The notes beneath the pieces are model-generated. The model had not been told where the DNA came from. It was given only the letters and a program-made list of their open reading frames with translations, and did not search any database. The position numbers were made by a program, and so were the translations under genes. From positions 64,001 to 128,000 of IMG/VR virus record IMGVR_UViG_3300028833_000074: a stretch of DNA of 64,000 bases; one strand, given 5' to 3'. Of the stretch, positions 3,001 through 53,360 are shown piece by piece (positions within the stretch are counted from its first letter, which is position 1; the number at the start of each line of letters is the position of its first letter). Source of the DNA: a virus (Duplodnaviria > Caudoviricetes).

Positions 3001-5215
3001 AGCAATTACTATATGTTATGAATGTAATTGGGTGTCAAATGGTTGGAATAATTATTGTCCACATTGTTTATCAAAGCATATTGAAAAAACCTTCGCTGAC
3101 TACAACAAAACATACTGCAACAAATGTCATACTTTACATGATAATTATTATTCAACATGTCCATCTTGTTTCTCAAAAGATGTTACATATCTACAAAATA
3201 ATGAAAAAATATACCAAATTTTTGATATTAATACACAAAATATTGAACCTATTATCATCAAAAGTAATATTAATAAAATTAATGTTTGCAATATAAAAAT
3301 ACCATTAAATAAACATACGAATGAACTTACTCAATTGAAAACATTATCTTTAATATTGACAACCACAAATCATAATGATGGAAAATATTATTATTGTCCG
3401 GATTGTGAAAGTGGTGGATTAGGTAATTATGATAAATGCCCTTATTGTAATAGTGTATCTATTGAAAATAATATCATTAATAATATTAATTTCGACATTT
3501 ATGCAACTGTCAATAATCAAACATCATTGCTTCAATCATATAATCAATTTACAGATACAAATAAGATATTTATTGATATATTAGATTTAGCAAAAACCAA
3601 TGCTAAAGAATATTTCACGCTATCTATATATGCAGAGAATCCATTTTATCAACAAAATAATAATGAGTTACATGCATTAAATATCGCCGAAGAATATCAA
3701 CAAGAAATACTAACAATTAATAATATAAATATTAGTATTGACAATATTGGTTTAGAATCCAAATATAAAAATGAACATGAATGGGAAAACTTAAATTCAT
3801 TATATGGACAACAACATCAAGGAGTAATATATCAGACAAATGAATATAATAATGATTATATTAATTTTTCTAACTTCAATATTGACGAAAAAAATTTAAA
3901 ACATTTATATTTGCATATTAATGGTATCAATAAAACGTTATCACATATACATGCAGATATAAAAATATCCGATAGCAAAGGACACACTTCATCAATAACA
4001 ATATACAACGTAGATAATGATTTATTTAATATACAAGAAGACATCTTGCCTTATATTAAAGATAAAAACGTTTCAATTCAAGTTAGATTTATTAATGCAA
4101 ATATTAATAAATATATCATTATTACCGATTGTTATTTAATCGCTGAAAAAGACAATAGTCACATTATTACACCATCATTATTGGAAGAAAATACCATTAT
4201 TAACCATTATGACAACAACTCTTATTTAATTTCAACCGAAAACCTCTGGCATCTTAACGATACCAAACCTTACTATTTGAGTGGTAGACAACTCCATAAT
4301 GGTTTATTATGCTATTTAGATTTTGGTAAATTAAATAGTGATGAATATATTAGATTATACGATATACAACTTGTAATTGAATATAAAAATAAATATGGTG
4401 TATTTATCACCGACAGTATTGATATATCTGACAATCCATTCCCAAAACAATTGCTCTCTGGAGATATTGTCAAAAATCAAGGTGAAAATTGGGGTGCAAT
4501 TAAGGTATCTGAAATAAGTTTAAATAATTTAGAATACGAAGTTAATATTAATACAGATAATGAAGATTTATTAAATTCATTGCCACTATTTAAAGCAATA
4601 TCACAATCTTTTATTGCCGATACAAGTAATATATATAAGATTGACTTTAAATATGATGGTCGAAGTGGTTATCCAAGTGAATATATCTATGTAGCGTTAT
4701 ACGATGACAATGGTAATACACCAGACAATTTAATCGCTCGTAAAAAAATCCAAACACCAAATGTTAGTAGCATTTTCAGTTTTGATTTTTACATTGATAA
4801 AATTAATGTTGGTGAAAAATATTGGATAATAATTGAAGATGACAACGCTGACAGATATAATCACCATAATTTTAAATATAATTTAAATAGCGATGTCGGT
4901 AATCTTATTATAACTGAAGAAAACAACTTCAGTACCAAATATGAAAATATGGCTTTAAGTTTTGCAATTGAAAGCAGTTATAATATTTCTGAATATCATG
5001 ATTTACCAGTTACATGGGAATTAGATACAGATATTGACAGCGATTTTAAGTTATATAATGCATTATATCGTTTTAATACAACATCATTGAGCAATGTATT
5101 TATTAAAGATTTATTAATCCGAAGTGGATATACAGAAACTGATGACGATTTTATTGATGAATCTTCAATAATAGATGTTGATGCTGATAATTTTGAAGAA
5201 GATGATAACTTATGA
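1..5215 (+). CDS. Very large virion structural protein, probably baseplate/tail (5'-truncated), with DUF11-like beta domains and several CxxC zinc ribbons
   Basis: The frame is open from position 2 through the ATG at 203, giving >1730 aa rich in Asn/Ile. 'NRVKPFGT' resembles baseplate-wedge KPxG motifs, and there are repeated CxxC-x(n)-CPxC units. It lies upstream of tail-fibre-like genes. Confidence 0.6.
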   Translation, partial: PTLTAIDSNTHPSFNENSRILTFPLLEANSSKYILEICYKAQKKGIYDFIIKTLDDKKSTEDDQYANMYQHKLLVNIDSSVDVRTTVTNNHPYLDEIFDFKIYVKNYFKNQNEFIFNIKDIGQYENAHEQNHFIIENVECQDGVFYPSDNQNQLGIWKITNIKAGDIFELILSLRPTDTKIHVIETEFIDTQLNRQKYRNEIDVLEPNKKIDFNVYHAVNHSDEDIDCQNCDKLTIICDDDFINLNDDIYYIFEITNNNKNPINYINLYARLPSSFLNNGIKCYNKNYPPSINSNNLVSFRINSIDGCQTKKFCIKVTPSQQGTFLSNFMLSTHNAHVLHRQLKLTVDSHYNARTTEHEITIYNFEKTNRYFRREMDNQGNLFKFFNKGDISKRTLDIEKHNASKVETYKGSTLKDIIQQIKDNSKYVEPELLRIGNNHLATKSYEMYPNGFINRFGLLNSEVFHYAGQLPTTSNLVDYAMRWDVDTWDTKVWTGNDYQNGVFDLTIDYAKIPTNFNILELDNPIGNLQSLVNRVKPFGTKAICYYSNSIKLTLKMELDLLSTTIDNNFLFDIELDKLGIITWYNRHDNSIYTTYDIHYFESEFDDIKVKTLNNMGKIDVNDDLETNMTYSIDIFKDKMSQQYIHECYNIVQNLLSSNIAITKEKNNLNLPLQKINRNSYINKLYDGDIYEFYFNGDIENEQIAGIYIENDRDIIACLRQRIDPFINHFTLQENDNTISSTNISNPYNFSIQVQCCTLQNNTKYRILHFWISTNDRKYQYLGYYFVTNYNDIVLYVNNSAGLPITYTQTSTKIDIEEEYDLTKDTPITFSIDDSIKKINETHNDIHLQSSALKWDNINNLNASNKYAIVYNDSNVDKECKASSLQTPKIMLRYDNINIDDTDEIQNIYVNLKANANYDFINNTTINIQKDGDYYLPNNNTSHKTYYPNNITNVNQTFISALNIQQPNITICGNCLRTSLGYYDECPYCNSNKVSHSDEKEAITICYECNWVSNGWNNYCPHCLSKHIEKTFADYNKTYCNKCHTLHDNYYSTCPSCFSKDVTYLQNNEKIYQIFDINTQNIEPIIIKSNINKINVCNIKIPLNKHTNELTQLKTLSLILTTTNHNDGKYYYCPDCESGGLGNYDKCPYCNSVSIENNIINNINFDIYATVNNQTSLLQSYNQFTDTNKIFIDILDLAKTNAKEYFTLSIYAENPFYQQNNNELHALNIAEEYQQEILTINNINISIDNIGLESKYKNEHEWENLNSLYGQQHQGVIYQTNEYNNDYINFSNFNIDEKNLKHLYLHINGINKTLSHIHADIKISDSKGHTSSITIYNVDNDLFNIQEDILPYIKDKNVSIQVRFINANINKYIIITDCYLIAEKDNSHIITPSLLEENTIINHYDNNSYLISTENLWHLNDTKPYYLSGRQLHNGLLCYLDFGKLNSDEYIRLYDIQLVIEYKNKYGVFITDSIDISDNPFPKQLLSGDIVKNQGENWGAIKVSEISLNNLEYEVNINTDNEDLLNSLPLFKAISQSFIADTSNIYKIDFKYDGRSGYPSEYIYVALYDDNGNTPDNLIARKKIQTPNVSSIFSFDFYIDKINVGEKYWIIIEDDNADRYNHHNFKYNLNSDVGNLIITEENNFSTKYENMALSFAIESSYNISEYHDLPVTWELDTDIDSDFKLYNALYRFNTTSLSNVFIKDLLIRSGYTETDDDFIDESSIIDVDADNFEEDDNL

Positions 5216-5373
5216 AACTAACAACAGAGGCAGAAATCAAACAAATTATTGAAATAGTAGACAAGGAAACTGGTCAAAAAAATTTTCTCATTGAAGAAGA
5301 TGGCGAATGGATACAAATAGCAAAAGAAAAATATTATCAAATATTACAAGGTGATAAAAATGGCGAACAATAA
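5212..5373 (+). CDS. Small hypothetical protein (53 aa, MKLTTEAEIKQ...), not in the ORF track
   Basis: The ATG overlaps the upstream stop (ATGA); the frame is open to TAA at 5371-5373 and fills the intergenic gap. Confidence 0.6.
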   Translation: MKLTTEAEIKQIIEIVDKETGQKNFLIEEDGEWIQIAKEKYYQILQGDKNGEQ

Positions 5374-5776
5374 ATATATAACACCAGAAGGTAAAACAAA
5401 ACTTTTACAATTGGGTTTTCTTAATAATACAAGTGGAACATTTAGTTATCTTGCATTAGGTGGCGAAGGTAGTTCTGCAGCAATATCTAACGATAAAAAT
5501 CAATTTTCAGAAGTGACTGGAGATAATTATCATAGAGTTCAATTAGAACAAGAAGGAGAAATTAGAACAGACTCCCAGTCTATTACATTATCAGCATTTT
5601 TTGAAGATATGAATTATAACCCATCTCAAGGGGGAACTATTACTGAAATAGCAGTTGTAGACAATGACGAAAACTCTGGTGAATTAGATACATTTTTCGC
5701 TTTTGCAGATGTACCGGACATTGAAAAAAACGACAATATTAGTTTAAAATATTCTATTATTATATCCATTTTATAG
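5360..5776 (+). CDS. Tail-collar/baseplate-associated protein
   Basis: GGTGAT RBS before ATG 5360. The pattern 'ITPEGKTKL...YLALG...TITEIAV' is typical of phage tail-fibre anchoring proteins. Confidence 0.55.
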   Translation: MANNKYITPEGKTKLLQLGFLNNTSGTFSYLALGGEGSSAAISNDKNQFSEVTGDNYHRVQLEQEGEIRTDSQSITLSAFFEDMNYNPSQGGTITEIAVVDNDENSGELDTFFAFADVPDIEKNDNISLKYSIIISIL

Positions 5777-8700
5777 GTGAATATTATGCCATCTTATTAT
5801 AATCGTGTCAAAGGCACATTGGAAGTTGCCAAATTGGCACAATCTTCAGACATACATTTAATTCAATCAAGCATACAAGATGCTATTTCAAGTTTAATCG
5901 TTGATATGTTTGGACCGGCATATATATTAGGACAACAAGAAGATGACTTAAAACTTGTACCTACAGCGATTCACGTTGACCAATCTAATACATATTATGA
6001 CAATGAACAACAATGGATTTCTTGTTATGAACGATACTTACGTCAAAATATTAGCATTAATAAATCTTCAATTGAAAGTATTAAAGTACATATGAAAAAT
6101 GATTCAAACTTAACTATCCCAGTTTATGCTGAAATTAGGGATATTAATTTTGATTTTATTCAAGAATCAAACGCTATTTTAAATCCAACCGACGAAGATG
6201 GATATCAAGAAGTAGAATTTAATTTTAACTTACATCATTTAGGCGTTGGTCATTATTATTTTGTCATCAAACCTATTGATATTTCAACCGCCGACTTAAT
6301 CGTAAATGGTGACGAAACCGAATACGATAACATTAATGAAGATACATTCCTTATCAGATATGATAGGGGTGGAAATTATCGTGAAGGATTAGAAGCATCA
6401 TATAATGGGGTTGATTATCTTAATGCATATTTATTAGAAGACCAACTTGAAAGTGATGATGATTTTAACATAGTATTACACGAAAATAATTTTGATTTAT
6501 ATTTTGAACAAGTTTTTAGTTCCGGTAACACATATTTGATTACACCGGGCGCAGCAGTTGTACATGGACAAAAGGTTTACCCTATCGATACTCACGTTAC
6601 TATTGATGGTCCTTCTCCATTAGGCGATAGAACCGACCTTGTAACCTTATCACAAGAAGGTATTTTAAATGTGATTAAAGGTAAAGTATATACTGGTAGT
6701 TTGGAAAATAATCGCCCAAAAAGTGATAATGGTTTAAAGATTGCATACATTACAACCTTTAAAAATGGTGTATCACAATGGAGATGCCCTATATGTGGTA
6801 ATATTAATGATGGTAATATTAAAAAATGTTTAAAATGTAATGAGGGTGAATTATCCATATCCAACAAAATTCCACTTGTTGAACAAAATGATGATAATTA
6901 TATCACCAGACAAAGAGATGTATTAGAACGCCTACGTCGTTTAGAGAAAAAAATTGACTATCAAAGCGAATATAATTCTCCAACAAGAATTAAATATATT
7001 TGTACTACCGACCCTATTCTTACAGAAAATACAAGTACAAATTACCAAGGTGATGGAACATATGGTATGACAACCATTAAAAATTCTGATGGACAATCTA
7101 TTACCATACCACAAACAGATACAAATATCATACAATTAGCATGGTCTATTATCAAAAGAACATATACACGTTCATACATCGATAGTTATACAACAACATA
7201 CTCAACAAACAAAAAAACAGTTACAACAAAATATATTTTAGACGCAATGGATGTGGCTATACCATATAAAAAGCCAAAGAAAATGACGTCTGCTGATTAT
7301 TATATTCTTAATTTTGTATATAAAGACGAGTATGTTAATAGCACAAAAACATCATCTAAAACAGTTAATAATACTTTAAAAACCACAGAAACTACAACTA
7401 CTCGTAATAAAGGTGTCAGTAAGGTAGACATAAAACTTACATTAAAATATGGTAAAAAAGTGGTTTATGAAAATACGCATACAACAACAAATAGTGGTCA
7501 AATTAAAATTGATATCTATAAGACTTTTAACTTTTTAAAAGCCGGCGAATATACAATGACCGCTACATATACAGATGCTAACAAAACTAAACATAAAATT
7601 ACAAGTAAAATCACAATATATTCTGGTAGTTTTACATCTAAACTAAAGGAAAACAAACAAACTTTTAGCGTTAAACAAGTTGTTGAAACACAAACAGCAA
7701 ATGGAAAAACACCAAATTATAAGGATATCACATATGATATACCAGATGATATTATTGCCGGCAATGATTCATTTTATCTTGATGGAGTGTCAGTCGATAC
7801 AGACAATGGTAAGGTTTATATTGATAAGGTAAGCAATCCAAATGAAAAATATATCGTAAATACACCATTGGAAAAAAGCAAGCAATACACATCACAAGAA
7901 ATTACTTATCAAATAAGCAATAATACAAAATCATTAAACAGTCAATATCCAGTATTAAATCTTGTATTTGAAAAAGATACATTTGTACATAGTTTGACAC
8001 CATATATTAACACGTTTAAAAATATGAAAAACTTTGGTATCATTTTATTCCGCAATGATGAAGTTTTTAATTTAACTCAATCTAAACGTATTTCTTACCA
8101 AAAGAAACTTGAAAACGACCCAGTCTTTGAAAATGTTTATTCAAGTACCTTAATTAATATTGCACCAATTTCAACATCTAAAAATGGTAAACGTGTATTG
8201 AAAGAATATCATAAATTTATTGTAGACAAACAAATCCCAGAAGGTACATACTCATTGCTTGTTTATGGACAATTAGAATCTAATCAAAGTGAAGGTGCTA
8301 TTTATATTAATGAATATGAAACCATGAGACAAATTGATAAATATGGTACATCTACAAAATGTTTAGGTTCATGTAATCCTTCTGTTATCTATTTAGAAAG
8401 CAATAATGTCTCAAGCAGAAGTTGGGATTTAGTTATTGAACAACAAAATGATAAATACAAAGATAGTGGTATCTTAATTTCCAAACCATATTCAGTCGGA
8501 GCCAACATCAAAAGTTGTACAATAGATAAAAATACAAATATACCAAATGGATGTAGTTTATCTATTCAAGTATCTAACGATGGTGGAAGTAATTGGATTA
8601 CAATGGATAGCGAACATATTACTTTTCCGGGTTTAGGAACTAAATTTGCTTGGAAATTAATTTTAAAAGGTAATGGTGAATATTCACCAGAATTACTCTT

Positions 8701-13174: not shown

Positions 13175-13213
13175 AAAAAAAAATCCCCATTAAACATATA
13201 TTTAATGGGGATT
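13175..13213 (-). terminator. 13-bp hairpin followed by a U-tract
   Basis: aatccccattaaa (13182-13194) / tttaatggggatt (13201-13213), with an A9 run on + that is a U-tract on -. Confidence 0.7.
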
Positions 13214-13286
13214 ATATTTAGTTATCAAGTTTGTCATGAGCCAAATGTTGAGAATAAAATATTCTACAATAATATATTTACAATCA

Positions 13287-13634: not shown

Positions 13635-15656
13635 CTATTCGGTAAGTTTATGTCTATGACGCTGATTAAACTCTTCACGCTTGCCGGCATTGAATGTATT
13701 AATGCATAAATAATATCCGGTGATTCTGTCGAACAGTCTTAAATCTTTACTACCACAAATAGGACATACTTCAAGTTTATCATTAATTGTAAAACCACAC
13801 TCGGCGCAAAATGTAAAAACCTTACTATACGCCCAAAATATTGGATTACCAAATTCTAAAATACGTTGGTTTAATTTCCAAATGGCTTCTGCATCTGACC
13901 ATACTTCACCAGACCAAATATGAAGAATGTCACCACCAAGGGATAAGTGTGCAAATTTTCCAGCATTTTCAATATGCTTAATCCAATCCACACCACTTGA
14001 AACTGGGATATGATGGCTATTAGTAAGATAATAAGCGCCTTCCTTACCTTGAACCGGACATTGAGGATATTTTTCTCTATTTATTGTAGCAAATCTAAAA
14101 ACTGTAGATTCTGCTGGTGATGCAATCACACTCCAACGAAGACCATCTCTTTCAAAAAATTCTTGTTTTTTCTTGTTAATAAATTTAACAATTTGTACGC
14201 CCTCATCTTCGGCTTCAACAATATTTTTGCCAAATAATACTTCAAGACATTCATTTAAGCCAGCATATCCTAAAGTAATGGTTGTACGATTAATATCCCA
14301 GAGTGGCTCTTTTGTATCTTTATCGACTTGCAGTAAGAAATCTGATGTATGTTTATTATAGATAATATCTTTAACGACTTCTCTTCTATGTATTAAACTT
14401 TTGTAACAAATTTCACAAACATTATCTAATAATTCATAGAAATCATCGACATCACCATCAACTTCTAATGCCAATAAAGGAAGATTTATTGTGTTATACA
14501 TAAAATTACCAGTATTACAACAATCTTTGAAATAATCACCGGTATAATTCATAGGTAAAGAACTTCTGCAACCCATTGTGCTTCTTTCTAAATCAATACA
14601 ATTATTATAATAAATAGTTGGGTTATTCGCCCCAGTTTCATGGAGTATTTTGCAAGTTCCTTTATATTCATCCAAATCACCCTTACGAATGTTAAAGAGT
14701 ATATTTGGGAAACGATGATAAGCGTTTTGACCATCTTTATTGTTTGAAACTTCACAAACAGCCTTAAAGATTAGGTCTGCCTCTTCTTGATAGTCTTTAT
14801 ATGTTCCAATTGCAACTCCTTCAAAAGAAATTGCTGGCTCATCTGCTAAAACTGGTGGACAAGAAAGGTCTAATGCAATAGAAGAGAACAATACTTGGCC
14901 ACCACGACAAATAAGTGACATGTTACAGTTGAAAATGAATCCCTCAATTGCTTGTTTGATATCTCGGTAAGAGCGCCCCTTACAGAATGGTGATAATAAC
15001 GTATTGAAATTTACATAGCCTTGCCCCCCAGAAAAGACTGTAGCACCGGCCATCCATGCTTGAAGCATATGATTAAGTAATACTTCAAGAGATTTAGCCG
15101 GCTTTGCTACTGAACCCATTTCACCTTTACCATCTATTTTGAGTCCATTTTTAGCAAAAAATCTCAAATCATAGTTCATACAATTAGGTCTTGTCATATA
15201 GTACTCTAAATCATGAATGTGAATCAACCCTTCACGATGGGCTTCAGCACACTCTTCTGGCATCTTCAATAAAGCGTATTCCTTTGCTATAGAGTCGTAT
15301 GCATATTTGGCAATCATCTCTGGACTATAACCAATGTTAGCATTATCCTTACATCCATTTGCAATAAGGTCTTCAAACTCCTTAACACTCATACCAAGTT
15401 TACGATAGTGTTCTTCGGCTTCAAATTCTCTTTCTTGCAATAATTGTGATGATACTTCAGCACGAATTGCTGATGTAGAAATTTCAGCCATTCCATCTTT
15501 TTTTAATTTATAAAGTTTATTAGAAATTCTACGCTGAATTTTTTCGGCAAGTTTCTCATCAACATTAGTTTCGTCCATAATAGTCTGTGCAATCAAACGT
15601 GGTTTAAATTGCTCTTTACTTCCATCATTATGTATTACAATAATTTTTTCTGTCAT
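13635..15656 (-). CDS. nrdD: Anaerobic (class III) ribonucleoside-triphosphate reductase with ATP-cone
   Basis: N-terminal ATP-cone, 'IHIHDL', 'SGGQG', finger-loop 'TMGCRS', zinc site CAECG...CPICG and glycyl-radical 'RITGY'. Confidence 0.95.
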   Translation of the reverse strand: MTEKIIVIHNDGSKEQFKPRLIAQTIMDETNVDEKLAEKIQRRISNKLYKLKKDGMAEISTSAIRAEVSSQLLQEREFEAEEHYRKLGMSVKEFEDLIANGCKDNANIGYSPEMIAKYAYDSIAKEYALLKMPEECAEAHREGLIHIHDLEYYMTRPNCMNYDLRFFAKNGLKIDGKGEMGSVAKPAKSLEVLLNHMLQAWMAGATVFSGGQGYVNFNTLLSPFCKGRSYRDIKQAIEGFIFNCNMSLICRGGQVLFSSIALDLSCPPVLADEPAISFEGVAIGTYKDYQEEADLIFKAVCEVSNNKDGQNAYHRFPNILFNIRKGDLDEYKGTCKILHETGANNPTIYYNNCIDLERSTMGCRSSLPMNYTGDYFKDCCNTGNFMYNTINLPLLALEVDGDVDDFYELLDNVCEICYKSLIHRREVVKDIIYNKHTSDFLLQVDKDTKEPLWDINRTTITLGYAGLNECLEVLFGKNIVEAEDEGVQIVKFINKKKQEFFERDGLRWSVIASPAESTVFRFATINREKYPQCPVQGKEGAYYLTNSHHIPVSSGVDWIKHIENAGKFAHLSLGGDILHIWSGEVWSDAEAIWKLNQRILEFGNPIFWAYSKVFTFCAECGFTINDKLEVCPICGSKDLRLFDRITGYYLCINTFNAGKREEFNQRHRHKLTE

Positions 15657-15711: not shown

Positions 15712-16362
15712 TCATATTCCATATACACCAACATTTAAACATAATTTGGTAAACATAATATCAAGTTCACTAATTTTTTTTTCAGAAATTTTACTTACAC
15801 GAATTATTTCTAATTTATTCATAATGTTATCTATATACACTTGTAATTTTATAATATAATTATCATCATCTTGCGTTAAATTCATTTCATCATCAATAAT
15901 TTTATAAATCTTATCAAAACTTTTAATTTCTACAAGCGTATTTTCAATTTCCTTATATTGAAAATCATTTGCACGTAATGATAAAATCATATTTTGTAAT
16001 TGACCAATGAATTTTTCAATAGGGGGATTGTCTATCACAAAAGAAATTATCTCATTAAACTCTTCGTTATCAGATGTAGCATTAATTAATAAATTATAAC
16101 ATGATGGTGAACCAATATTATAAATATAATATAAAATCACACCAAGTTCAATAAATATTACTTGATGTCCATCTATTTCCATTGTGATATCAGACTCTGG
16201 TTGCTTTACAAAAGATAAATAATTATTTAGCGAATTAATAAAAATACCATAAATATTATTATATTGCGTATAGCAACTTAAAACAACTACTTGCTTGTTA
16301 TCTTCAAAAGAATCAGCAATTAAACGTAATGTTTTATCATCAATAGGTTTATCTTCATTCAT
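15712..16362 (-). CDS. Hypothetical protein, possibly a degenerate nucleotidyltransferase-fold protein
   Basis: 'NIYGIFI...YLSF' and 'GSPSCYNLL' weakly resemble phage nucleotidyltransferases, but there are no catalytic GS/DxD residues. Confidence 0.35.
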   Translation of the reverse strand: MNEDKPIDDKTLRLIADSFEDNKQVVVLSCYTQYNNIYGIFINSLNNYLSFVKQPESDITMEIDGHQVIFIELGVILYYIYNIGSPSCYNLLINATSDNEEFNEIISFVIDNPPIEKFIGQLQNMILSLRANDFQYKEIENTLVEIKSFDKIYKIIDDEMNLTQDDDNYIIKLQVYIDNIMNKLEIIRVSKISEKKISELDIMFTKLCLNVGVYGI

Positions 16363-16864
16363 TATAATCCCCATCGTATTTTGTATCCACTCCTTGCGCT
16401 TGTAAATCAACTAATTGTGCAAATCTTGCACCTTTTTCAATGCAAAAATCTGTATTACGATGATTGATAATCAAAAAACTTAAATGTCCATCGAAACCAG
16501 CATCACCTAATGCTGTTTGTACAGACACGCCAGCACGCAACAAAGAAGAACGTGGCAAATAAAATTGCGCAGAGTCTGGAGCAATTTTAATTTTTTCTTT
16601 AGTAACCGCAATATAAGGTGTATTTGGTTGTAATGTATATACTTGCCTTAAACTACCTTTGACTTGTACAGTATTTGTATTAACATCGGTTTGTTGAGGT
16701 AAAACTTTAATATCTTTAAATAAACCATATATATGCATATTTGTATCTTCTATTGTTTTAATACAATCTAAAGTTAAATCAATACCAGTAGGTTGATATT
16801 GTTTATCATCCAGTCCATTATAACGTTCTCTTAAAATTAATTCACCATTAATCACTTGAATCAC
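16355..16864 (-). CDS. Trimeric dUTPase / dCTP deaminase family
   Basis: Motifs 'QPTGIDLT', 'PRSSLLRAG', 'DAGFDG', 'RFAQL' and C-terminal 'YDGDY'. Confidence 0.9.
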   Translation of the reverse strand: MIQVINGELILRERYNGLDDKQYQPTGIDLTLDCIKTIEDTNMHIYGLFKDIKVLPQQTDVNTNTVQVKGSLRQVYTLQPNTPYIAVTKEKIKIAPDSAQFYLPRSSLLRAGVSVQTALGDAGFDGHLSFLIINHRNTDFCIEKGARFAQLVDLQAQGVDTKYDGDYNE

Positions 16865-17060
16865 CTAATTTTAATATTTTTCCTTGAGAAATATCCATAA
16901 AAATTTCAGTAGGTAATATTTCTCTCACTTCATAATTTTGTTTTATTGCTTTATCAATATCATCAACACTAATAATACCTATAAACTCATCATGTTCATA
17001 GATTAACAAAAAATTTTTCCACAACTCCCATACACTAATTCCTAATAAATCTTTATACAT
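16848..17060 (-). CDS. Hypothetical protein
   Basis: GGAGG RBS before ATG 17060; overlaps both neighbours. Confidence 0.5.
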   Translation of the reverse strand: MYKDLLGISVWELWKNFLLIYEHDEFIGIISVDDIDKAIKQNYEVREILPTEIFMDISQGKILKLGDSSD

Positions 17061-17712
17061 TTTCTTCCTCCGCAACACGTTTGAAATTTGCGTAAACATC
17101 TTTAGCAAACACAATTGATGTTTTCTTTAAGGCCATCAAATGTAATCTTTTCTTATTATATGTTGGATTTTTATATTTATATTGCGTTTTATAATAACGA
17201 TATAATTCTGCAAACTCATCATCGTTTGCAATTAATTTACTCGTACATCGTATGATTGCTTTTTTTAAATCTTCACAGTAATCAATAGGGTCTTGTTTTT
17301 TATTGGCAACAATCTGCCCCCTACTGTATTTCTTAATTTTAGAATAATAATTTTTATTTCTTACAACTGGAGATAAACCAGCATATGATAAAAAATGCTT
17401 ACGATTTTGAAAACGCTGAATGTCACCTATCTCGACAATAAGTTCGGCAGCATCATATAAATTAATATAAGGTACTTTGCGTAAAAAACTCATATATTCT
17501 TCTGAAAAAAATAAAATATTTTGTATTTCATCTCTTAACATTTGCAAAGGACTATCAAAAGGTAATATACTAATATTTTCAAGCCTATTATATCTTGATG
17601 ATGATATATCACCAAAACTTATTAAACGATGTTTATTACTCTTTTGTGCATTAAAAACAGTTTTATTCGTGTTAAATAATATTGATAAAACTTTACGCTC
17701 ACTTGAATCCAT
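17053..17712 (-). CDS. IS110-related Nop-domain protein lacking a nuclease domain (TasA-like)
   Basis: 'LRKVPYINLYDAAELIVEIGDIQRFQNRKHFLSYAGLSP' matches the IS110 C-terminal/Nop domain. There is no DEDD RuvC domain and no catalytic SSG loop. The C-terminus reads 'LYRYYK...KRLHLMALKK...FAKDVY'. Confidence 0.7.
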   Translation of the reverse strand: MDSSERKVLSILFNTNKTVFNAQKSNKHRLISFGDISSSRYNRLENISILPFDSPLQMLRDEIQNILFFSEEYMSFLRKVPYINLYDAAELIVEIGDIQRFQNRKHFLSYAGLSPVVRNKNYYSKIKKYSRGQIVANKKQDPIDYCEDLKKAIIRCTSKLIANDDEFAELYRYYKTQYKYKNPTYNKKRLHLMALKKTSIVFAKDVYANFKRVAEEENV

Positions 17713-17716
17713 TGTT

Positions 17717-18343
17717 TCACATCCTTAAAATATTATTTTTGGCTTTTTTAGATAAACGTGGTATTTTATCTAATTCATCTTCAGTTGCTGTTAATACTTT
17801 GCTTGGTTTTTTAAAATTTTTCAATAATGTGCGAGCAGTTTGTTTTCCTACACCATCAATACCAATTAAAACATTAATAAAAGCATTGGAATCTTTTTTT
17901 CTTACAATAGGATATTCTAATGGTTCTGTAGATTTATCAATATTATTAATAATTGATGAAATGCAAGAAACAAATTGTTTAAAGTTACTTGCAACAAATA
18001 CTGGGGTTTTATAACGAATCATCAACGACGCAATATTTCCAAATTTTTCATTATTTGTTTGTTGTGTCACATATTGTTCGTTCATTTTAAAATCATCATA
18101 AATAATAATAAATGAAAAAGGCGTTAATTCTTTCATTTGCAAAGCCTCTTTCTGAATTTGTCTATTTCGACAAGATGTGATAAAATCTTGAATTGTTTTC
18201 GTCTCAATTAATATATCTTTTTTACCTTCTTGTAAAATTGCAATATCACCAGAAATTAAACGTTCTACTTTCAAATCTGGAAAATAATTACGTAATTTTG
18301 CAATACGTTCATCATCTTCTCTATCATCAACAAGAATATGCAT
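17717..18343 (-). CDS. ERCC4/XPF (Hef-like) nuclease with C-terminal HhH
   Basis: 'VDDRE', 'GDI', 'IETKTIQDF' (ERKxxxD-like) and HhH 'IDGVGKQTA'. Confidence 0.9.
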   Translation of the reverse strand: MHILVDDREDDERIAKLRNYFPDLKVERLISGDIAILQEGKKDILIETKTIQDFITSCRNRQIQKEALQMKELTPFSFIIIYDDFKMNEQYVTQQTNNEKFGNIASLMIRYKTPVFVASNFKQFVSCISSIINNIDKSTEPLEYPIVRKKDSNAFINVLIGIDGVGKQTARTLLKNFKKPSKVLTATEDELDKIPRLSKKAKNNILRM

Positions 18344-18351
18344 ATAATCAC

Positions 18352-19281
18352 CTATAAATATAAATTAGCGCCACAACAATCAGATGAATTACAAATACCA
18401 TTACACTTTTGTGATTCACAACTTGAAAACAATATATCTTCTCTACCAAATAGATAGGAAACTTGATGTTCTTCTTCTACACAATGTTGAAATTTTTCAT
18501 CAGATAAATGATTTCGCAAAATCTCAACAACTTCTTCTTCAGTATATCCATCATCACGTAAATATATAATTAATTCACGACGCTCATGATATCCTAAATT
18601 TGCATTAGATAGAAGATAATCAATACAAGGTGGAAACTTGGCACTAAAATGAATATCATTCAATATAACTTCGTGTTTAGTTGTGATAATATCTTCATCC
18701 AATGGCAACAAAGAAACATAATCTTGACCGATAATATAATCGGCATGTCCATTGTATGATTTTGCCATTTGACAAATGTCTTCGTAAGATAATTCACATA
18801 ATTGATGATATTCAATTGGTATGCAATATAAACCAGTTTTTAAATTTTTAGTGCCAAGTATACGAGAAACTCTACGAGTATCTCCAACAACAGATGGGTC
18901 CGAATATGTGTTGGTTCTCCGATGTAAATTTTTTACCCACTTTTTTATCGCCAATTTAGGTTGTTTTAATTGTTCGTTATGAGTTAAAATAAAAATATGA
19001 AAGCCTCGACCACTAAAACGAATATAAAATTTTACACCCAAATCGTAAAGATAAAACGCAACCTTACGTACATCATCATAGAACTTTAAATCTGTATCAT
19101 AATCAAAATCAAGAAAAATTTTATCAATATAAGCATTTGGTGCTATTGGTTCTCCAACATAAGAATATACAGATTGATAAATATTTTTTTTTCCATTATA
19201 TAATGCAATAAATTTATCAATATCAGCATCATCTGTAATTGTTATTCTTATTTTGGGAATAAAAATTTCTTTAACCATCAT
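18352..19281 (-). CDS. Fused archaeo-eukaryotic primase (PriS catalytic domain + PriL Fe-S domain)
   Basis: AEP motifs 'FLDFD', 'FSGRGFH', 'DTRRVSR'; PriL-CTD motifs 'FPPCI', 'HERR', 'SC...C...C'. Confidence 0.85.
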   Translation of the reverse strand: MMVKEIFIPKIRITITDDADIDKFIALYNGKKNIYQSVYSYVGEPIAPNAYIDKIFLDFDYDTDLKFYDDVRKVAFYLYDLGVKFYIRFSGRGFHIFILTHNEQLKQPKLAIKKWVKNLHRRTNTYSDPSVVGDTRRVSRILGTKNLKTGLYCIPIEYHQLCELSYEDICQMAKSYNGHADYIIGQDYVSLLPLDEDIITTKHEVILNDIHFSAKFPPCIDYLLSNANLGYHERRELIIYLRDDGYTEEEVVEILRNHLSDEKFQHCVEEEHQVSYLFGREDILFSSCESQKCNGICNSSDCCGANLYL

Positions 19282-21596: not shown

Positions 21597-23387
21597 TCAC
21601 ATCAATGTTGTTTGTTTGTATTGATTTTCATGAACGATTGGGATATCATCAAAAGCACCAGCCCATATTAATGATTCTCTAACTCTTTTGTTACATGCAC
21701 GTGGAGCAATACGTAAACAAAAGTCTTCAAATGATAAAAATTTACCCTTTTTACGTTCTCGTAAGATTGCTTGAGATATTTTATTAGATACATTAGCAAC
21801 CAAATTTAAGCCCATATAAATTTTATTATCAGCAATAATTGTATTTGCTTCACTAATATTAATATTTGGTCCACATAATTCCGCATCACTTTCTTTTATC
21901 ATATTTAAAATCTCTACACGTTTTTCTTCTTCTTTAGTATTTTGGAGCATTGCAATTGCAAATTCCAAAGGATAATAAGTTTTCAACCATGCAGATTGAT
22001 AAGACACAGCAGAATATGAATAACAATGTGCTTTGTTGAAAGAATATTCAGAAGCATTTTCAATATCTGACCACAATTTCTCTGCCACTTCTTTTTGAAC
22101 ATTATTATCTATACAACCTTGTATAAATTTAGGTTTATATAAGTCAAAGGCTTCTTTTTTCTTTTTGGATACTGCTCTACGTAAATTATCTGTGTCAAGG
22201 TCAGACATACCGGCAAGTTGATTAGCCACTTGCATAATATTTTCTTGATATATCATAAGACCGAATGTATCACCAAGAATATCTTGTAAACGTGGGTCTG
22301 CATATGTAACTTCTTTCCTACCAAATTTATAATCACAATAAAGGTCTAAATAACCACTATTTCTTGCTCCGGGCCTAATAAGTGCAATAACATCCATTAA
22401 TTCGTTAAAATTATCTGGATGTATTTGCTTTGTACCAGATATACCAGCACCTTGTTCTAATTGAAAAATACCCATTGTATTACGATTGATTGTTTCAAAA
22501 ACTTTTGGGTCATCAAAATCATAAGGCAAATGAACATCATCATCAATTAATTCTAAAGTGTCCTTATGAATATCTAATACTGCCACACCAAGACAGTCAT
22601 TCTTTAGAAAACCCATCGCTTCACATTCACTACCATCATTAGAGATAACATCCTTACCAGTTACTGATATAGTTGAACAATAATTATCAATATCACCATC
22701 AAGAATTATCATACCACCGGCATGCACCCCATATGATTTAGTCAAACCGACAAGGTCATCAATATAATCTCTAACTTCAGTATGTTCATTTAAAAAATCC
22801 ATAACTTTAACATTATCATGATAATCTTCATTAGGTGCTAAATAAGATGTAACCTTGTTAACAACTTGAAAGTCAATACCTTGTCTTGCTGATAAATCCT
22901 TGATTAGCATTTTAGGTGTAAATTTTAATTTTGTTATCATTTGCCCAGTACATTCTTCACCATATATATCACGAATATATTGTAAGGCTTCATCTCTTTG
23001 TGATGAAGCAAAATCTGAATCTATATCCGGTAATGATGTCATTACTCTTGTTTTATTTAGAAAACGAGAAAATGATAATCCAAAGCCTTTGGGTGGAAGT
23101 TTAGTAATGTTTAATGCATAACAAACCACACTACCTACTGCAGAACCCCTACCGGCACTTCTAATAATACCTTTATCATCCAAGTAAGCAAGAATATAAG
23201 CAGTATTTAAAAAAAAGTTTTCCAAACCACAATCAAATATTACATTCAATTCATATTCTAATTGTGATTGGTACCATTCATCATCGCCAACACCTTTAAT
23301 GCGTAAACCACGTTGGCACATTTGTTTGATAAAATTTTTGTTATCTTCTTCAAAATCAAAAAAAGTTTGTTGCGCATCTCTTATCAT
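21597..23387 (-). CDS. dnaE: DNA polymerase III alpha (family C) catalytic core
   Basis: 'GRGSAVGS', 'LPDIDSDF', 'HAGG', 'KNDCLG', 'GIFQLE', 'IRPG', 'YQE', 'YSFNKAH'. Confidence 0.95.
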   Translation of the reverse strand: MIRDAQQTFFDFEEDNKNFIKQMCQRGLRIKGVGDDEWYQSQLEYELNVIFDCGLENFFLNTAYILAYLDDKGIIRSAGRGSAVGSVVCYALNITKLPPKGFGLSFSRFLNKTRVMTSLPDIDSDFASSQRDEALQYIRDIYGEECTGQMITKLKFTPKMLIKDLSARQGIDFQVVNKVTSYLAPNEDYHDNVKVMDFLNEHTEVRDYIDDLVGLTKSYGVHAGGMIILDGDIDNYCSTISVTGKDVISNDGSECEAMGFLKNDCLGVAVLDIHKDTLELIDDDVHLPYDFDDPKVFETINRNTMGIFQLEQGAGISGTKQIHPDNFNELMDVIALIRPGARNSGYLDLYCDYKFGRKEVTYADPRLQDILGDTFGLMIYQENIMQVANQLAGMSDLDTDNLRRAVSKKKKEAFDLYKPKFIQGCIDNNVQKEVAEKLWSDIENASEYSFNKAHCYSYSAVSYQSAWLKTYYPLEFAIAMLQNTKEEEKRVEILNMIKESDAELCGPNINISEANTIIADNKIYMGLNLVANVSNKISQAILRERKKGKFLSFEDFCLRIAPRACNKRVRESLIWAGAFDDIPIVHENQYKQTTLM

Positions 23388-23396
23388 ACTATCCCC

Positions 23397-24335
23397 CTAA
23401 TAAATTTTATTGCAAAATATTTTTTTAAATTTTTTATGTTGAGTAAAATTTGGAATAATTCTTTCATATTCTGGCATCTCAAAATAGCATTTTTCTGCAA
23501 TTTTATGTGTATTGTCAATGCAAGTTTGTATCAACTTGTCATCTTCTAATCCACTTTGATGCGCAAATTGATATGAATAGTCACTATTGCCTAAAATATT
23601 ACTAATTAATGTTTCGTTAATTTCGCTCTCTGGCTTTTTCCAATTGATAGATTGTATTTTCCTTCTTAATTTTCTGTCTTCATCCAATAGGACATGACTA
23701 TCAAAGGTATTAATAATGTATTTTGCATCTGTATCTTCATATAATTCTACCAATTTATTGTTTAAATAATTTTGAACCGGCAATCCAGTTTTATCATCAA
23801 TGTATGTTGGGTGATATTGCAATTCAACTGCAACATTGTCTTTTCCAAAGTAATCTAATAATTTATTGAAAAAATCATATGCTATATCATCTTTTTGATT
23901 TAAAAAGCATTGATTGATGTAAGAAAGTGAGCAAGCAGTTGATACAAAAATGCCTTCTGGATTGGTATTAAATAAAACTGGATGTGGCAATAAAGGTTTG
24001 TAATAAAAATGCTGTTTAACTGATAATCTTTGCATTTTTCTAATACTTTTAGCACCTCGCTCATTCATAGCCAACAAGACTAAATGATATCGTGTTTGAC
24101 CTTGTGGCTTACCCATCATAGTTTTACAATAAAATTCATTTCCAAACAATGGTTTAACATTGGTATCTTTACATGCTTCCTTTAGGGCATACCAATTCGC
24201 AAGACTACCATGGTCTGTAACTGCTACATATTCTTGCTCATAAATTTGAATTTGATTAATTAATTCTGGCACTTTAATGACAGAATCACCTACAGATGCA
24301 TCAGTATGTAAATGTAAATTTACGAAATTATCCAT
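23397..24335 (-). CDS. dnaE: PHP domain subunit of split DnaE
   Basis: 'NLHLHTDAS', 'TDHG', 'GNEFY', 'HLVLLA', 'STAC', 'DSH' and the ending 'NTHKIAEKC'. Confidence 0.9.
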   Translation of the reverse strand: MDNFVNLHLHTDASVGDSVIKVPELINQIQIYEQEYVAVTDHGSLANWYALKEACKDTNVKPLFGNEFYCKTMMGKPQGQTRYHLVLLAMNERGAKSIRKMQRLSVKQHFYYKPLLPHPVLFNTNPEGIFVSTACSLSYINQCFLNQKDDIAYDFFNKLLDYFGKDNVAVELQYHPTYIDDKTGLPVQNYLNNKLVELYEDTDAKYIINTFDSHVLLDEDRKLRRKIQSINWKKPESEINETLISNILGNSDYSYQFAHQSGLEDDKLIQTCIDNTHKIAEKCYFEMPEYERIIPNFTQHKKFKKIFCNKIY

Positions 24336-24545: not shown

Positions 24546-25438
24546 TTTTTATTCCCTTTAGCATTTGCTTTTGGGAATATTAAATCATACACTTTATCAT
24601 ATTGTAAATCAATTGTTTCTTCTTTATTATTTGCGCTCATAAATACTTGTTTTTTACCAACAGAGAAGATATTAGACCTATCTTTTCTAATAGTTGCAAC
24701 ATAATCTTCTACATTAACATCTTCTACACTTGGTATTTTTTCGATTGTTAATCTCATAGAACATTCATCTATAAGTCTTTGTTTAACAGAAGATAAATCC
24801 TTACCTTGCTCTACAAGTTCTGGTATAAAATCAGAATGAGTTACATAAATGACCGGAGTATCAAGACTCATGAATGCTGAAGTACATTCTCTAAAAAATT
24901 TATTTCTAATTTTCCATACACTTAATTGTGCGCCTTGGTCAGCATCAAGATTCTTTTCTAATCTCATTCTTGCTTCAGCATATTCAAGTAAAAATGAAAC
25001 ACCATCAAGAATAACACCCTTAACATGAATATCTTGTTCTAATGCTTGTCTAACTGCTTCGGCTGCAGATGTAACATTATTAACAATAGTTTCTTCATCC
25101 TTAACAGTTGCACCTTTCTCATTTTCGGTAAAAGCATCTGGATTATATATTCTAATATTACCAGATTGATATTCATCTAAATAAAATGATTGAATGATTT
25201 CTTCACCGCTATTATCAACACTAATATAAACAATAATTTCATCATCCTTTAAATCATAAGTTAATAAATAAAGTGCTAAAGAAGTTTTACCAGTACCATT
25301 CTCACCACTTAATAATATTTTCTTATTAATTTTATCATTTATCTTTTGTTTTTTTGCATCAAAAATTTGTCCAAAAATCTCATCCTTCATTGATTCTTTT
25401 GGTTTACGTGTTTTCTCTCCCATATTACGAATTCCCAT
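24542..25438 (-). CDS. AAA_24/Sak4-like RecA-fold ATPase
   Basis: Walker A 'GENGTGKT', Walker B 'VILDG', 'YVTH'. Confidence 0.8.
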   Translation of the reverse strand: MGIRNMGEKTRKPKESMKDEIFGQIFDAKKQKINDKINKKILLSGENGTGKTSLALYLLTYDLKDDEIIVYISVDNSGEEIIQSFYLDEYQSGNIRIYNPDAFTENEKGATVKDEETIVNNVTSAAEAVRQALEQDIHVKGVILDGVSFLLEYAEARMRLEKNLDADQGAQLSVWKIRNKFFRECTSAFMSLDTPVIYVTHSDFIPELVEQGKDLSSVKQRLIDECSMRLTIEKIPSVEDVNVEDYVATIRKDRSNIFSVGKKQVFMSANNKEETIDLQYDKVYDLIFPKANAKGNKK

Positions 25439-25628
25439 AGTTTTCCACCTCTTTCATTAATTTTAATAGTCTTGTTTCTTTCTGTTCTATAATAGTTTTA
25501 AGTTTAATTTTCACAAAGATATCTGAAATGTTATTATAATCTTGCACCAGAATCTTGATATCATTAGTCAGAGTTGTCATCTGTCTGTGCAACTCTTGTG
25601 AATAAGGACTTTCGCTCAACATAATCAT
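25425..25628 (-). CDS. Small helical hypothetical protein
   Basis: ORF in the coupled operon. Confidence 0.5.
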   Translation of the reverse strand: MIMLSESPYSQELHRQMTTLTNDIKILVQDYNNISDIFVKIKLKTIIEQKETRLLKLMKEVENYGNS

Positions 25629-25788
25629 CTGTAATTGTATTCAGTTCATCAATAATAATCCCCTTTGTAATGATATGTCTCGCTACGACTAAATCATTTT
25701 CAAGAATTTGAATTCGAGAACGCACTTCTCGAGTGCGTATCTCAAATAAAGTATAAGGGTTTGATAAATCTTCTGGGGTATATCCCAT
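25564..25788 (-). CDS. Small helical hypothetical protein
   Basis: ORF in the coupled operon. Confidence 0.45.
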   Translation of the reverse strand: MGYTPEDLSNPYTLFEIRTREVRSRIQILENDLVVARHIITKGIIIDELNTITDDYVERKSLFTRVAQTDDNSD

Positions 25789-26747
25789 TATAAATCATCC
25801 TCAATTGGTAAAAATCCACCACAATTGTACCTTAAAGTACCATCTCTACGTGGTGTAACATTCATAAATAAGATACCATCAATACCATCGGTAATGTTTA
25901 ATCCAGCAAAAGATGTTGGATGCACCCATACGATAAAGTCATCATCTTCTGTTTCAAAGTTGATTGAGATATCTCTTGTTGGGTCTTCATTAGGGAAGAT
26001 ATCCATACAAGTTGCTCTAACACCAATAAAAGCGTTTTTATCGTATTTTTTATCTTCAAGGTATTTTAATCCATCAATCATACTGTCAAATATGATATCT
26101 CCAAAGAATTGTTCAACATATCCAAGATAAATTTTAACTGCATCTTCATCATATGCATCTACATCTTCAAGAACAGTTGCCCCATTGAAATAAAGAATGT
26201 TTGCGTTTTTAACAAGTTGACCAGATTTTTTACCTTCTTTAAAAGTAAATTTGGATTCTTTACAAACCGGTAATACTTTGTCCATTGCATAACTACCGAT
26301 TGATACATCTCTTGCGACAATACCTTCATCGGTTTGGAAGATACCTACAGCACTACCATAAATTGCTTTCTTATCAATGACTTCACCTTTACTAAATCCT
26401 TGGGTATGAATATATTCGCCTTGTTCATTAGCCATACCCTTTTTGATAGCATTTTCAAGACCATTTTCCTTGACATATCTGTCTACTTGGTTCCAAGCAT
26501 AAAGATTGTATTCTTGGTCTGGGAATCTCATGATAATGAAACCATCCATTCTTTGACCAGATTGCACTAATCTTCTTAAACTACCACGTGTTTTTCTCAA
26601 AGAACGAATTATTTTCTTGTTTTCATCCATGTCTTCTGGCATACCTTCAAAAATTTCTTGATAGATTCTTTCCATTTCTGATTCATTTATACCATGTTTT
26701 TCCGCAAATTCTTGATTTTTTTGTTTCTCTGTGTCAATACTACTCAT
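25788..26747 (-). CDS. First gene of the replication operon; putative ssDNA-binding/OB-fold protein
   Basis: Strong GGAGGT RBS at ATG 26747, beta-rich C-terminus with acidic tail, and position next to a Sak4-like ATPase. Function inferred from context only. Confidence 0.4.
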   Translation of the reverse strand: MSSIDTEKQKNQEFAEKHGINESEMERIYQEIFEGMPEDMDENKKIIRSLRKTRGSLRRLVQSGQRMDGFIIMRFPDQEYNLYAWNQVDRYVKENGLENAIKKGMANEQGEYIHTQGFSKGEVIDKKAIYGSAVGIFQTDEGIVARDVSIGSYAMDKVLPVCKESKFTFKEGKKSGQLVKNANILYFNGATVLEDVDAYDEDAVKIYLGYVEQFFGDIIFDSMIDGLKYLEDKKYDKNAFIGVRATCMDIFPNEDPTRDISINFETEDDDFIVWVHPTSFAGLNITDGIDGILFMNVTPRRDGTLRYNCGGFLPIEDDL

Positions 26748-28086: not shown

Positions 28087-28100
28087 ATAGGTGGTGTTAA

Positions 28101-28270
28101 TTTTACTTCTTAACCCAAGAAGACTTTTTATGACTCTTATATACGAATGTGGGGGTAAAAATATATAAGTCTTGTCAGTAGGACGATATTATGAGTCTTT
28201 TTACTTCTCTACTTCAGAAGACTTTTAACGACTCTTATAGTAAAACATAAAAAAACTATAAGTCTTGTCA
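28101..28270. repeat. Two ~75-nt structured direct-repeat units with variable loops
   Basis: ttttacttct-n7-agaagactttt..gactcttata-[variable]-tataagtcttgtca at 28101-28177 and 28199-28270. Confidence 0.75.
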
Positions 28271-28403
28271 AGGAGTTAAAAAATTACAATTTGCAATGAA
28301 GTGAAAATTTATAAGCCCCGATTACATAATCCCAAAAAATTAAATCATGATAACTTATTATTATATCCTTTCGGATAACGAGGCTTATTATATCATGATT
28401 AAG

Positions 28404-28475
28404 TCAGTATAAGTGGATTTGCACCACTATCTCCCACCACGTGTATTGGGTGTTTTACTATTAAACTATATACTG
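28404..28475 (-). pseudogene. tRNA-like element with an abnormal anticodon arm
   Basis: Acceptor CAGTATA/TATACTG, D-arm GTTT/AAAC and T-arm AGTGG-TGCAAAT-CCACT pair fully. The anticodon arm CCCA-ATACACGTGG-TGGG is non-canonical. Confidence 0.65.
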
Positions 28476-28476
28476 A

Positions 28477-28567
28477 TTATGTCGAATGGGGAAAGGAAAT
28501 GATTTAATGATTAGTACACCTAACAATTGTGCATAGTAAACGAAGGTAAAAAACCCATTCGACATAA
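28477..28567 (-). ncRNA. Candidate small RNA closed by a perfect 14-bp stem
   Basis: ttatgtcgaatggg (28477-28490) / cccattcgacataa (28554-28567), with a pyrimidine-rich interior on the - strand. Confidence 0.5.
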
Positions 28568-28608
28568 CGACAGTTGAATTCGAGAAATGGAGAAATAACA
28601 TGCTCCAA

Positions 28609-52770: not shown

Positions 52771-53286
52771 CTAAAATCCATATTTTTGCATTTCTGCATC
52801 AAGTGTTCGCCATCCAACACCATTCATACTTTTTGCCACAACATCAATGGGTTCATCAAGCAATAATATTTTATGTACTGCAAGACGCTTAATGCGTTTT
52901 TTCAATATCATATTTTTCTTGTTTTCTTCTGCGACCATTGTCATAAAAAAAGTAAGCCAAAGCAATAATGTGTCTTCTGCATATTTTTGAGCAACTTTTC
53001 TGCAGACATCCACACATTGCCTTTTTGCTTCCAAATCCCAATTTTCAGTTACAACATCATACACCAAACAAAAAGAATCATACACATATTGCGAACCATA
53101 TTGCTGTTTTAAATAGTATAATTCTTGAAAATAATCAATATCTGTTGGTCTTTTCGCATTGCCATTGGTGTCTTCAATATAAACACACCATTCATCAAAA
53201 CTACCAACATCAAAATATATCTTATATCCATTGGACAATTCAAATCCCCTATTATAGTTCACCACTTGTGTAAATTTTCTTATCAT
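52771..53286 (-). CDS. Hypothetical protein
   Basis: Likely start MIRKF at 53286; 'FDVGSFDEWCVY', 'MVAEENK', 'KRIKRLAVH'. Confidence 0.6.
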   Translation of the reverse strand: MIRKFTQVVNYNRGFELSNGYKIYFDVGSFDEWCVYIEDTNGNAKRPTDIDYFQELYYLKQQYGSQYVYDSFCLVYDVVTENWDLEAKRQCVDVCRKVAQKYAEDTLLLWLTFFMTMVAEENKKNMILKKRIKRLAVHKILLLDEPIDVVAKSMNGVGWRTLDAEMQKYGF

Positions 53287-53360
53287 TTTTACATCAATCC
53301 ATATATTATGAAAGACAGTAATAATACTAATATTACAATAAGTATGATAATTCCAAAAGT

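Follow-up and report, generated by a model that had tools for sequence, protein, structure and literature searches.

Gene pair and replication operon

The analysed stretch of 64,000 nucleotides, here referred to as the window, spans positions 64001-128000 in a virus record of 152,284 bp (G000) that is classified as complete by CheckV. On its minus strand, positions 17053-17712 carry a gene with an ATG start that encodes a solo Nop-domain protein of 219 aa, termed TasA-like protein in the following, and the complete record contains a single copy of this gene. The encoded protein can be divided into an N-terminal coiled-coil hairpin (residues ~3-68), a helix-hairpin-helix (HhH)-like core harboring the EIGDIxRF and SYAGLSP motifs, a basic β-hairpin or 'wedge-loop' (~116-146) and C-terminal helices. 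Its sole significant Pfam match is PF02371 (Transposase_20; E 2.5e-8, 34.6 bits with a cut-off of 21.3), in which residues 77-119 align with positions 4-46 of the 87 profile positions, i.e. with the first half of Transposase_20. In PHROGs, the protein is labelled 'transposase' (phrog_2199, E 2.2e-10).

The catalytic parts of such transposases are missing. With Pfam, no match to the DEDD RuvC-like domain PF01548 was found in the TasA-like protein, whereas the IS110 hits P0123 and P0126 do carry it. A nuclease domain is absent, as reflected by the length of 219 aa, by PF02371 as the only Pfam match and by a structural model that aligns to nothing but the Nop part of TasR (chain 108-300). In an alignment that includes the IS110-type sequences P0117 and P0125 (alignment A2), these two feature the 'SG' catalytic-serine motif after YxGxxP, while the TasA-like family has K/N at this position, followed by a basic β-hairpin that is longer than in the IS110-type sequences. 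Across the family alignment (A1), no conserved Ser is found in the catalytic loop. A preliminary description of the locus had proposed a 219-aa protein with the IS110 C-terminal signature that lacks both the DEDD domain and the catalytic serine; this is borne out by the presence of VEIGDIQRF...SYAGLSP, the unmatched PF01548 and the replacement of SG by K/N.

Directly upstream and in the same orientation lies the gene for an ERCC4/XPF-type nuclease of 208 aa with C-terminal (HhH)2 (17717-18343, minus strand; PF02732 E 2e-9, HHH_5 E 9.6e-8), with 4 nt between its end and the start codon of the TasA-like gene. Its catalytic signature (D6, R8, E9, D10, G32-D33, E47, K49, D53) is invariant in eight orthologs. 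The upstream side of the operon continues with an archaeo-eukaryotic-type primase gene (18352-19281, minus strand; PF04104 E 8.5e-7, phrog_16345 primase E 3.8e-9), a 129-aa gene, a Cas4-like PD-(D/E)XK nuclease gene and the replicative polymerase, which is of bacterial DnaE type and split in two (21597-24335, minus strand; PHP-domain gene 23397-24335, core gene 21597-23387). On the downstream side, a dCTP deaminase/dUTPase-like gene (16355-16864, minus strand; PF22769 E 6e-22, PF00692 E 2.5e-11) and NrdD belong to the same operon. The TasA-like gene had been described as tightly coupled between the ERCC4 and dUTPase genes, with no adjacent non-coding space. This holds for the upstream side with its 4 nt, but the downstream neighbor is better named dCTP-deaminase-like and is separated by 188 nt, although these are filled by a small variable ORF (16848-17060, minus strand; ~70 aa from an ATG at 17060) that was recognized from the sequence and overlaps the TasA-like stop codon. 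This ORF is lacking in most relatives (absent in loci L001, L002 and L006-L009, with a weak match only in L081) and thus lies outside the conserved pair.

Conservation was assessed with 12 related loci, drawn from IMG/VR, from JGI/ENA metagenomes and from a single MAG contig, whose proteins share 39-100% identity with that of the window. All 12 have the ERCC4 gene followed by the TasA-like gene, with a gap of at most 8 nt or a 1-nt overlap. This adjacency corroborates the previously suggested tight coupling of the two genes, and the catalytic motif of the nuclease is intact. Insertions occur on the outer sides of the pair and comprise 0.6-1.7 kb upstream of ERCC4, including a 200-aa gene and a cytosine methyltransferase, and 0.3-2.2 kb downstream of the TasA-like gene. 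The interval between primase and ERCC4 is a variable hotspot that spares the ERCC4/TasA-like pair.

Within this interval, L081 carries an inserted DNA cytosine-5 methyltransferase gene at its positions 2498-3496, and L002, L004 and L076 also bear inserts of ~0.6-1.7 kb.

Homologs, predicted fold and host

A search of 5.8 billion proteins afforded 86 full-length homologs of 188-232 aa with 48-100% identity, all of which match PF02371 only and many of which are encoded on contigs of 140-155 kb. Alignment A1 covers 34 family members over their entire length and has 39 invariant columns, of which many hold basic or aromatic residues, and the family is kept full-length and free of stop codons at 40-100% identity. 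When 1.8 billion cluster representatives were searched exhaustively without a profile, the family was found to be surrounded by a thin shell of solo relatives of 190-260 aa, beyond which the true IS110 transposases follow. Scanning viral contigs with two of the distant solo relatives (P0091 and P0093) gave no matches, and the sole match among cultured phages by tblastn with the TasA-like protein was an unrelated Inovirus transposase. Fused ERCC4-Nop proteins or other longer forms of the TasA-like protein were not found, which is weak evidence. The preliminary description had named a truncated IS110 pseudogene without conservation in related viruses as the outcome that would speak against it; the 86 full-length homologs and the 12 syntenic loci show the opposite. 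The TasA-like gene is under purifying selection and fixed in the replication operon, beside an intact XPF-type nuclease gene and without an array.

AlphaFold2 modelling on the family alignment yielded a confident and complete predicted fold (pLDDT 89, pTM 0.82) in which a helical hairpin at the N-terminus and a helix-hairpin-helix-like core are combined with three long helices at the C-terminus; a three-stranded basic hairpin at residues 116-135 is predicted with lower confidence. When the model was compared to the PDB using Foldseek, TIGR-TasR (9MTY) ranked first (E 8.6e-7, TMq 0.72), followed by IS621 and TasH, and a search of the PDB sequences with the family profile returned TasR as the only match (E 1.1e-3). 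Based on this ranking and the profile match, the TasA-like protein is the complete module of coiled coil and C-terminal 'Nop' domain and is closest to Tas effectors. According to the model, it has the Tas-type Nop-domain fold, in which a coiled-coil dimerisation hairpin is combined with a C-terminal RNA-binding domain. The initial assignment as a nuclease-less, TasA-like protein with a Nop/IS110 C-terminal domain agrees with this result, as Tas effectors are structurally nearest.

With regard to the host, the pseudomurein-binding repeat PF09373 was detected at 37.8 bits (cut-off 24.9) in an ORF of 369 aa that lies outside the window in the same genome (G000:52776-53885, corresponding to L086:1279-2388, plus strand) and in 0 of 14 control genomes; judged by this repeat, the protein is probably a lysin. 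A search of 50,697 phage records with the ERCC4 protein gave matches only in Methanobacteriales viruses. Three smaller viruses among these (Drs3, vir249 and vir080) have ERCC4, and no TasA-like gene is detectable in them. The PF09373 repeat, the ERCC4 matches and the synteny with the cultured virus PhiF1 (see below) together point to a pseudomurein-walled methanogen host (Methanobacteriales), which is probably a Methanobrevibacter in light of the gut and rumen samples and a G+C content of 31%. A bacterial host, as could be suspected from the DnaE polymerase and from the 'Bacilli' and 'Clostridia' labels of homologous MAG contigs, was rejected on the same three grounds. DnaE is uninformative in this respect, because many phages have DnaE-like polymerases, and the two taxonomic names are most likely binning labels.

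PhiF1, a cultured Methanobacterium virus that infects Methanothermobacter thermautotrophicus, was reached only via the ERCC4 neighbor search. Its genes are arranged in the order DnaE, PD-(D/E)XK, primase-like ORF55, ERCC4 ORF54, a small ORF, ORF53 ('transposase 20-like'), ORF52 and NrdD, and its DnaE is split in the same way (ORF57/58) as the polymerase of the window. ORF53 (MK994522, QGH71209.1), which has so far been annotated only as a 'transposase 20 superfamily-like' protein (MK994522), matches the profile of alignment A2 with E 1.4e-12 and alignment A1 in hhalign with a probability of 80%. It is a distant member of the same superfamily that occupies the same module, between the ERCC4-type nuclease and the gene for the anaerobic ribonucleotide reductase. 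Differences concern the high divergence of ORF53, which was missed by tblastn and by Pfam at E 0.01, the ORF of ~75 codons that separates it from ERCC4, the genome size of 74 kb and the thermophilic host. The intervening ORF is unannotated (L083 3628-3843, PhiF1 53108-53323) and opens with three GTGATAGAT repeats.

Search for a guide RNA

In the TIGR-Tas literature, arrays are described either as dual-repeat arrays (repeats of 8-12 nt, spacers of ~9 nt) or as tandem stem-loop units with two spacers of 8-12 nt and box C/D flanks, and both may lie upstream, downstream or inside of tas. Stem-loop tigRNAs have a size of ~54 nt and contain CUU/UG or CCA/UG boxes. Using TRF, no dual-repeat TIGR array was found in the window. 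Likewise, a period-autocorrelation analysis (periods 24-109) gave only coding repeats and no interspaced array, both for the complete genome (152 kb) and for three related genomes of 85-139 kb (G001-G003). The rest of the genome, which had been suggested as a place to search for a TIGR array, thus yielded none in this analysis. The coding repeats behind the autocorrelation signals are located outside the window (G000:50589-51296 and 14509-15303) and consist of a 23-aa BspA-type leucine-rich repeat with a period of 69 nt and ~88% identical copies, as well as of Ser/Gly/Lys-rich low-complexity sequence with periods of 27 and 33.

Several further candidates were dismissed. Two apparently large non-coding gaps (G000 7198-7635 and 24604-25818) are both coding and gave no Rfam matches. 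A tigRNA inside the TasA-like gene was rejected as well, since the RNAalifold consensus over eight CDSs showed no meaningful conserved structure. The interval 13175-13270, which had been put forward as a guide candidate, contains a 14-bp hairpin followed by a T7 run and is terminator-like. In PhiF1 (L087), clusters of identical 12-nt iterons GTATTACTGAGG are found at 3621-3748, 4842-4930 and 5470-5543, in a region of ~2.3 kb without annotated genes that is adjoined by TATA-like boxes and small unannotated ORFs. These repeats (3621-5543) were rejected as a TIGR array, because the iterons are identical and variable spacers are lacking; their sequence rather suggests operators or an origin. The complete genome is thus devoid of a recognizable guide-RNA array, and the TasA-like protein may or may not be RNA-guided.

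The second interval that had been proposed to encode guides, 28087-28608, proved to be a tRNA island with structured RNAs and without the tigRNA layout of two variable spacers. It lies between two tRNA-Thr genes and includes a third tRNA-like gene (28404-28475, minus strand; 50.4 bits with Infernal, no ARAGORN call) with an odd anticodon loop, in which the anticodon region is one nucleotide too long. Two tandem units at 28101-28270 (minus strand) share the constant scaffold ACAAGACTTATA ... TATAAGAGTC ... AAGTCTTCT ... AGAAG and contain two variable hairpin loops each. This motif was rejected as a guide, since it occurs only in this genome among those checked and since its variable parts are hairpin loops, which does not correspond to the topology of tigRNAs.

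Between these units and the tRNA-like gene, a conserved structured RNA of ~97 nt that is not in Rfam is encoded at 28307-28403 (minus strand). A 10-bp outer stem is followed by the invariant 13-nt strand UAAUAAGCCUCGU, after which come a 5-bp hairpin, a strand of 11 nt, a U-run and GGGAUUA; the next segment is complementary to the 13-nt strand, consistent with a pseudoknot or an alternative fold. Using a covariance model, five viral lineages were found to have one copy each, and in four of them the copy follows a tRNA or tRNA-like gene at a distance of 0-54 nt. Pairing in the outer stem reaches 100% and includes four compensatory pairs, and four of the five pairs of the inner hairpin are compensatory. 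No copy was detected in G003 or PhiF1, both of which have the TasA-like protein. Pattern scans for this RNA gave mostly chance matches and close copies.

When genomes were scanned for the layout of stem-loop tigRNAs, a single unit per genome was obtained, namely a pseudo-symmetric 58-nt hairpin at 28343-28400 (minus strand) within this RNA, which is composed of a stem, a UAA...GU strand, a 5-bp hairpin, a second UAA...GU strand and the closing stem. The five lineages share an identical 5' strand AAGCCUCGU, which pairs with conserved sequence 45 nt downstream, and only five nucleotides vary in the 3' strand. Being invariant and paired in cis, AAGCCUCGU hence appears to be part of a pseudoknot rather than a spacer. 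From these sequence comparisons, we rate the RNA at 28307-28403 as an independent, real and uncatalogued viral RNA, while its function as a guide would be a long shot.

Possible roles and comparison with known systems

Taken together, the TasA-like gene may best be viewed as a vertically inherited core gene of the replication module of a lineage of Methanobacteriales viruses that encodes a TasA-type protein free of nuclease and catalytic serine, lacks an array and acts as the partner of an active-looking ERCC4 nuclease. We favor this interpretation, albeit tentatively. By homology with TasR and Nop5, the protein would dimerise through its coiled coil, and the basic C-terminal domain together with the wedge-like hairpin would bind nucleic acid. 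The TasA-like protein and ERCC4 could then act jointly on flaps, forks, RNA-DNA hybrids or similar structures that arise during replication or recombination. The nuclease precedes the Nop domain in TasR and TasH (PMC12045711), and the order of the ERCC4 and TasA-like genes mirrors this domain order, which suggests that the two proteins cooperate. The pair would provide in trans what TasR and TasH combine in a single polypeptide, and any RNA cofactor would be an unlinked, non-array RNA. Synteny extends over the whole module, however, so that the adjacency seen in related genomes is weak evidence of a physical partnership, and the argument is further weakened by the (HhH)2 dimerisation domain of ERCC4 itself and by the occurrence of ERCC4 alone elsewhere.

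An alternative that we consider unlikely, yet worth weighing, is a classical RNA-guided TasA that binds DNA and represses transcription independently of ERCC4, with single stem-loop guides encoded elsewhere, for example in the tRNA island. An overlooked guide is conceivable, because characterized TasA proteins are RNA-guided repressors (bioRxiv 10.64898/2026.09.09.750476). Under RNA guidance, TasA and dead TasR repress transcription, and the positions of stem-loop tigRNAs are flexible. Moreover, only 6,685 arrays are catalogued for 20,096 tas loci, and the conserved, covarying hairpin at 28343-28400 is close in size to a stem-loop tigRNA. Yet, only one such hairpin is present per genome, its 5' strand is fixed and engaged in cis, and its motifs are unlike the CUU/UG or CCA/UG boxes. 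Neither the failure to detect this RNA in G003 and PhiF1 nor the absence of a conserved RNA fold inside the gene favors this scenario.

Even more doubtful is a split RNA-guided nuclease, in which the XPF-family enzyme would replace the fused RuvC or HNH domain in trans and which would constitute a previously unknown type of Tas effector. Such a two-subunit nuclease might use the pseudoknot RNA of the tRNA operon or a replication-derived RNA as guide and cut specific viral, host or competitor DNA while the methanogen viruses replicate. This is consistent with a constant, translationally coupled gene pair that is ordered like the fused domains and persists while its flanks vary, with the intact ERCC4 motif and with a predicted fold that is nearest to the nuclease-bearing TasR. 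However, the scans for arrays, for the tigRNA layout and for structures inside the gene identified no guide, fusion proteins were not encountered and other methanogen viruses have ERCC4 on its own. The location in the replication module also fits a structure-specific nuclease that needs no guide.

A role as decoy or adaptor for host box C/D sRNPs, which would involve binding of host C/D sRNAs or of K-turn RNAs bound by L7Ae, seems very improbable. The probable pseudomurein-walled methanogen host does have Nop5/fibrillarin/L7Ae sRNPs, and the Nop fold is shared; compared with Nop5 and Nop56/58 of box C/D sRNPs, the TasA-like protein does not display the defining combination of a fibrillarin-binding N-terminal domain and a Nop5-like Nop domain. 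Finally, a decaying, functionless fragment of an IS110 transposase is scarcely credible despite the 'transposase' labels in Pfam and PHROGs and the NCBI name 'IS110 family transposase' for one homolog, given full-length, stop-free sequences with 39 invariant columns at 40-100% identity, a confident and complete predicted fold, a single copy at a fixed syntenic position and a start codon 4 nt after the ERCC4 gene that leaves no room for IS ends.

The TasA-like protein lacks every feature that defines an IS110 transposase. Unlike IS110-family recombinases (IS621, PDB 8WT6/8WT9; ISCro4, 9T56), it has neither DEDD/RuvC domain nor catalytic serine, and its gene is present as a single copy in a fixed syntenic slot in 12 loci, without IS ends or a bridge-RNA region. 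TasR and TasH (PDB 9MTY, 9W04) carry a fused RuvC or HNH nuclease, whereas XPF/ERCC4 is encoded by a separate gene here, and the sequence identity to them amounts to only 11-20%. Short XPF/Mus81-type ERCC4-(HhH)2 nucleases of archaea resemble the neighboring enzyme in the ERCC4 domain, the C-terminal (HhH)2 and the conserved GDxn-ExK-x3-D signature; the enzyme described here differs in being virus-encoded, in its size of ~208 aa and in its constant pairing, within this lineage, with a Nop-domain protein.

The closest counterpart is TasA (PMC12045711; bioRxiv 10.64898/2026.09.09.750476), which shares the coiled coil and the C-terminal Nop domain, the size of ~220 aa, the lack of a nuclease and the origin from viruses. 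In contrast to TasA, no dual-repeat or stem-loop TIGR array was found beside the gene or in the complete genome, and the gene is located inside a replication operon, where it is coupled to an ERCC4 nuclease. Judged from the model, the protein has the structure by which TasA is defined but, as far as tested, no array, and any RNA binding is putative. ERCC4 or XPF is not mentioned in the main texts of PMC12045711 and bioRxiv 10.64898/2026.09.09.750476, and the accessible parts of the supplements of Faure et al. (PMC12045711) contain neither these terms nor any accession or contig name of the present family. In a full-text literature search, no joint occurrence of 'TIGR-Tas' with ERCC4, XPF or Mus81 was present among the matches listed. 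XPF/ERCC4 is therefore a nuclease family that has not previously been linked to Tas proteins in the TIGR-Tas literature examined.

The definition of TIGR-Tas dates from 2025, and for most of the tas loci catalogued no array has been detected. The present family provides a clean case of such a Tas protein, with complete genomes, no array and a strictly conserved place in the replication module. Since the same pair occurs in the cultured PhiF1 of M. thermautotrophicus, the role of the array-less protein can be addressed at the bench. Either outcome would be informative, as the protein could turn out to be a guide-less Nop-domain accessory of a structure-specific nuclease or part of a new split nuclease that is guided by a non-array RNA. 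In both cases, it would add to the picture of Nop-domain proteins from Tas, IS110 and Nop5 that have been recruited to different enzymes.
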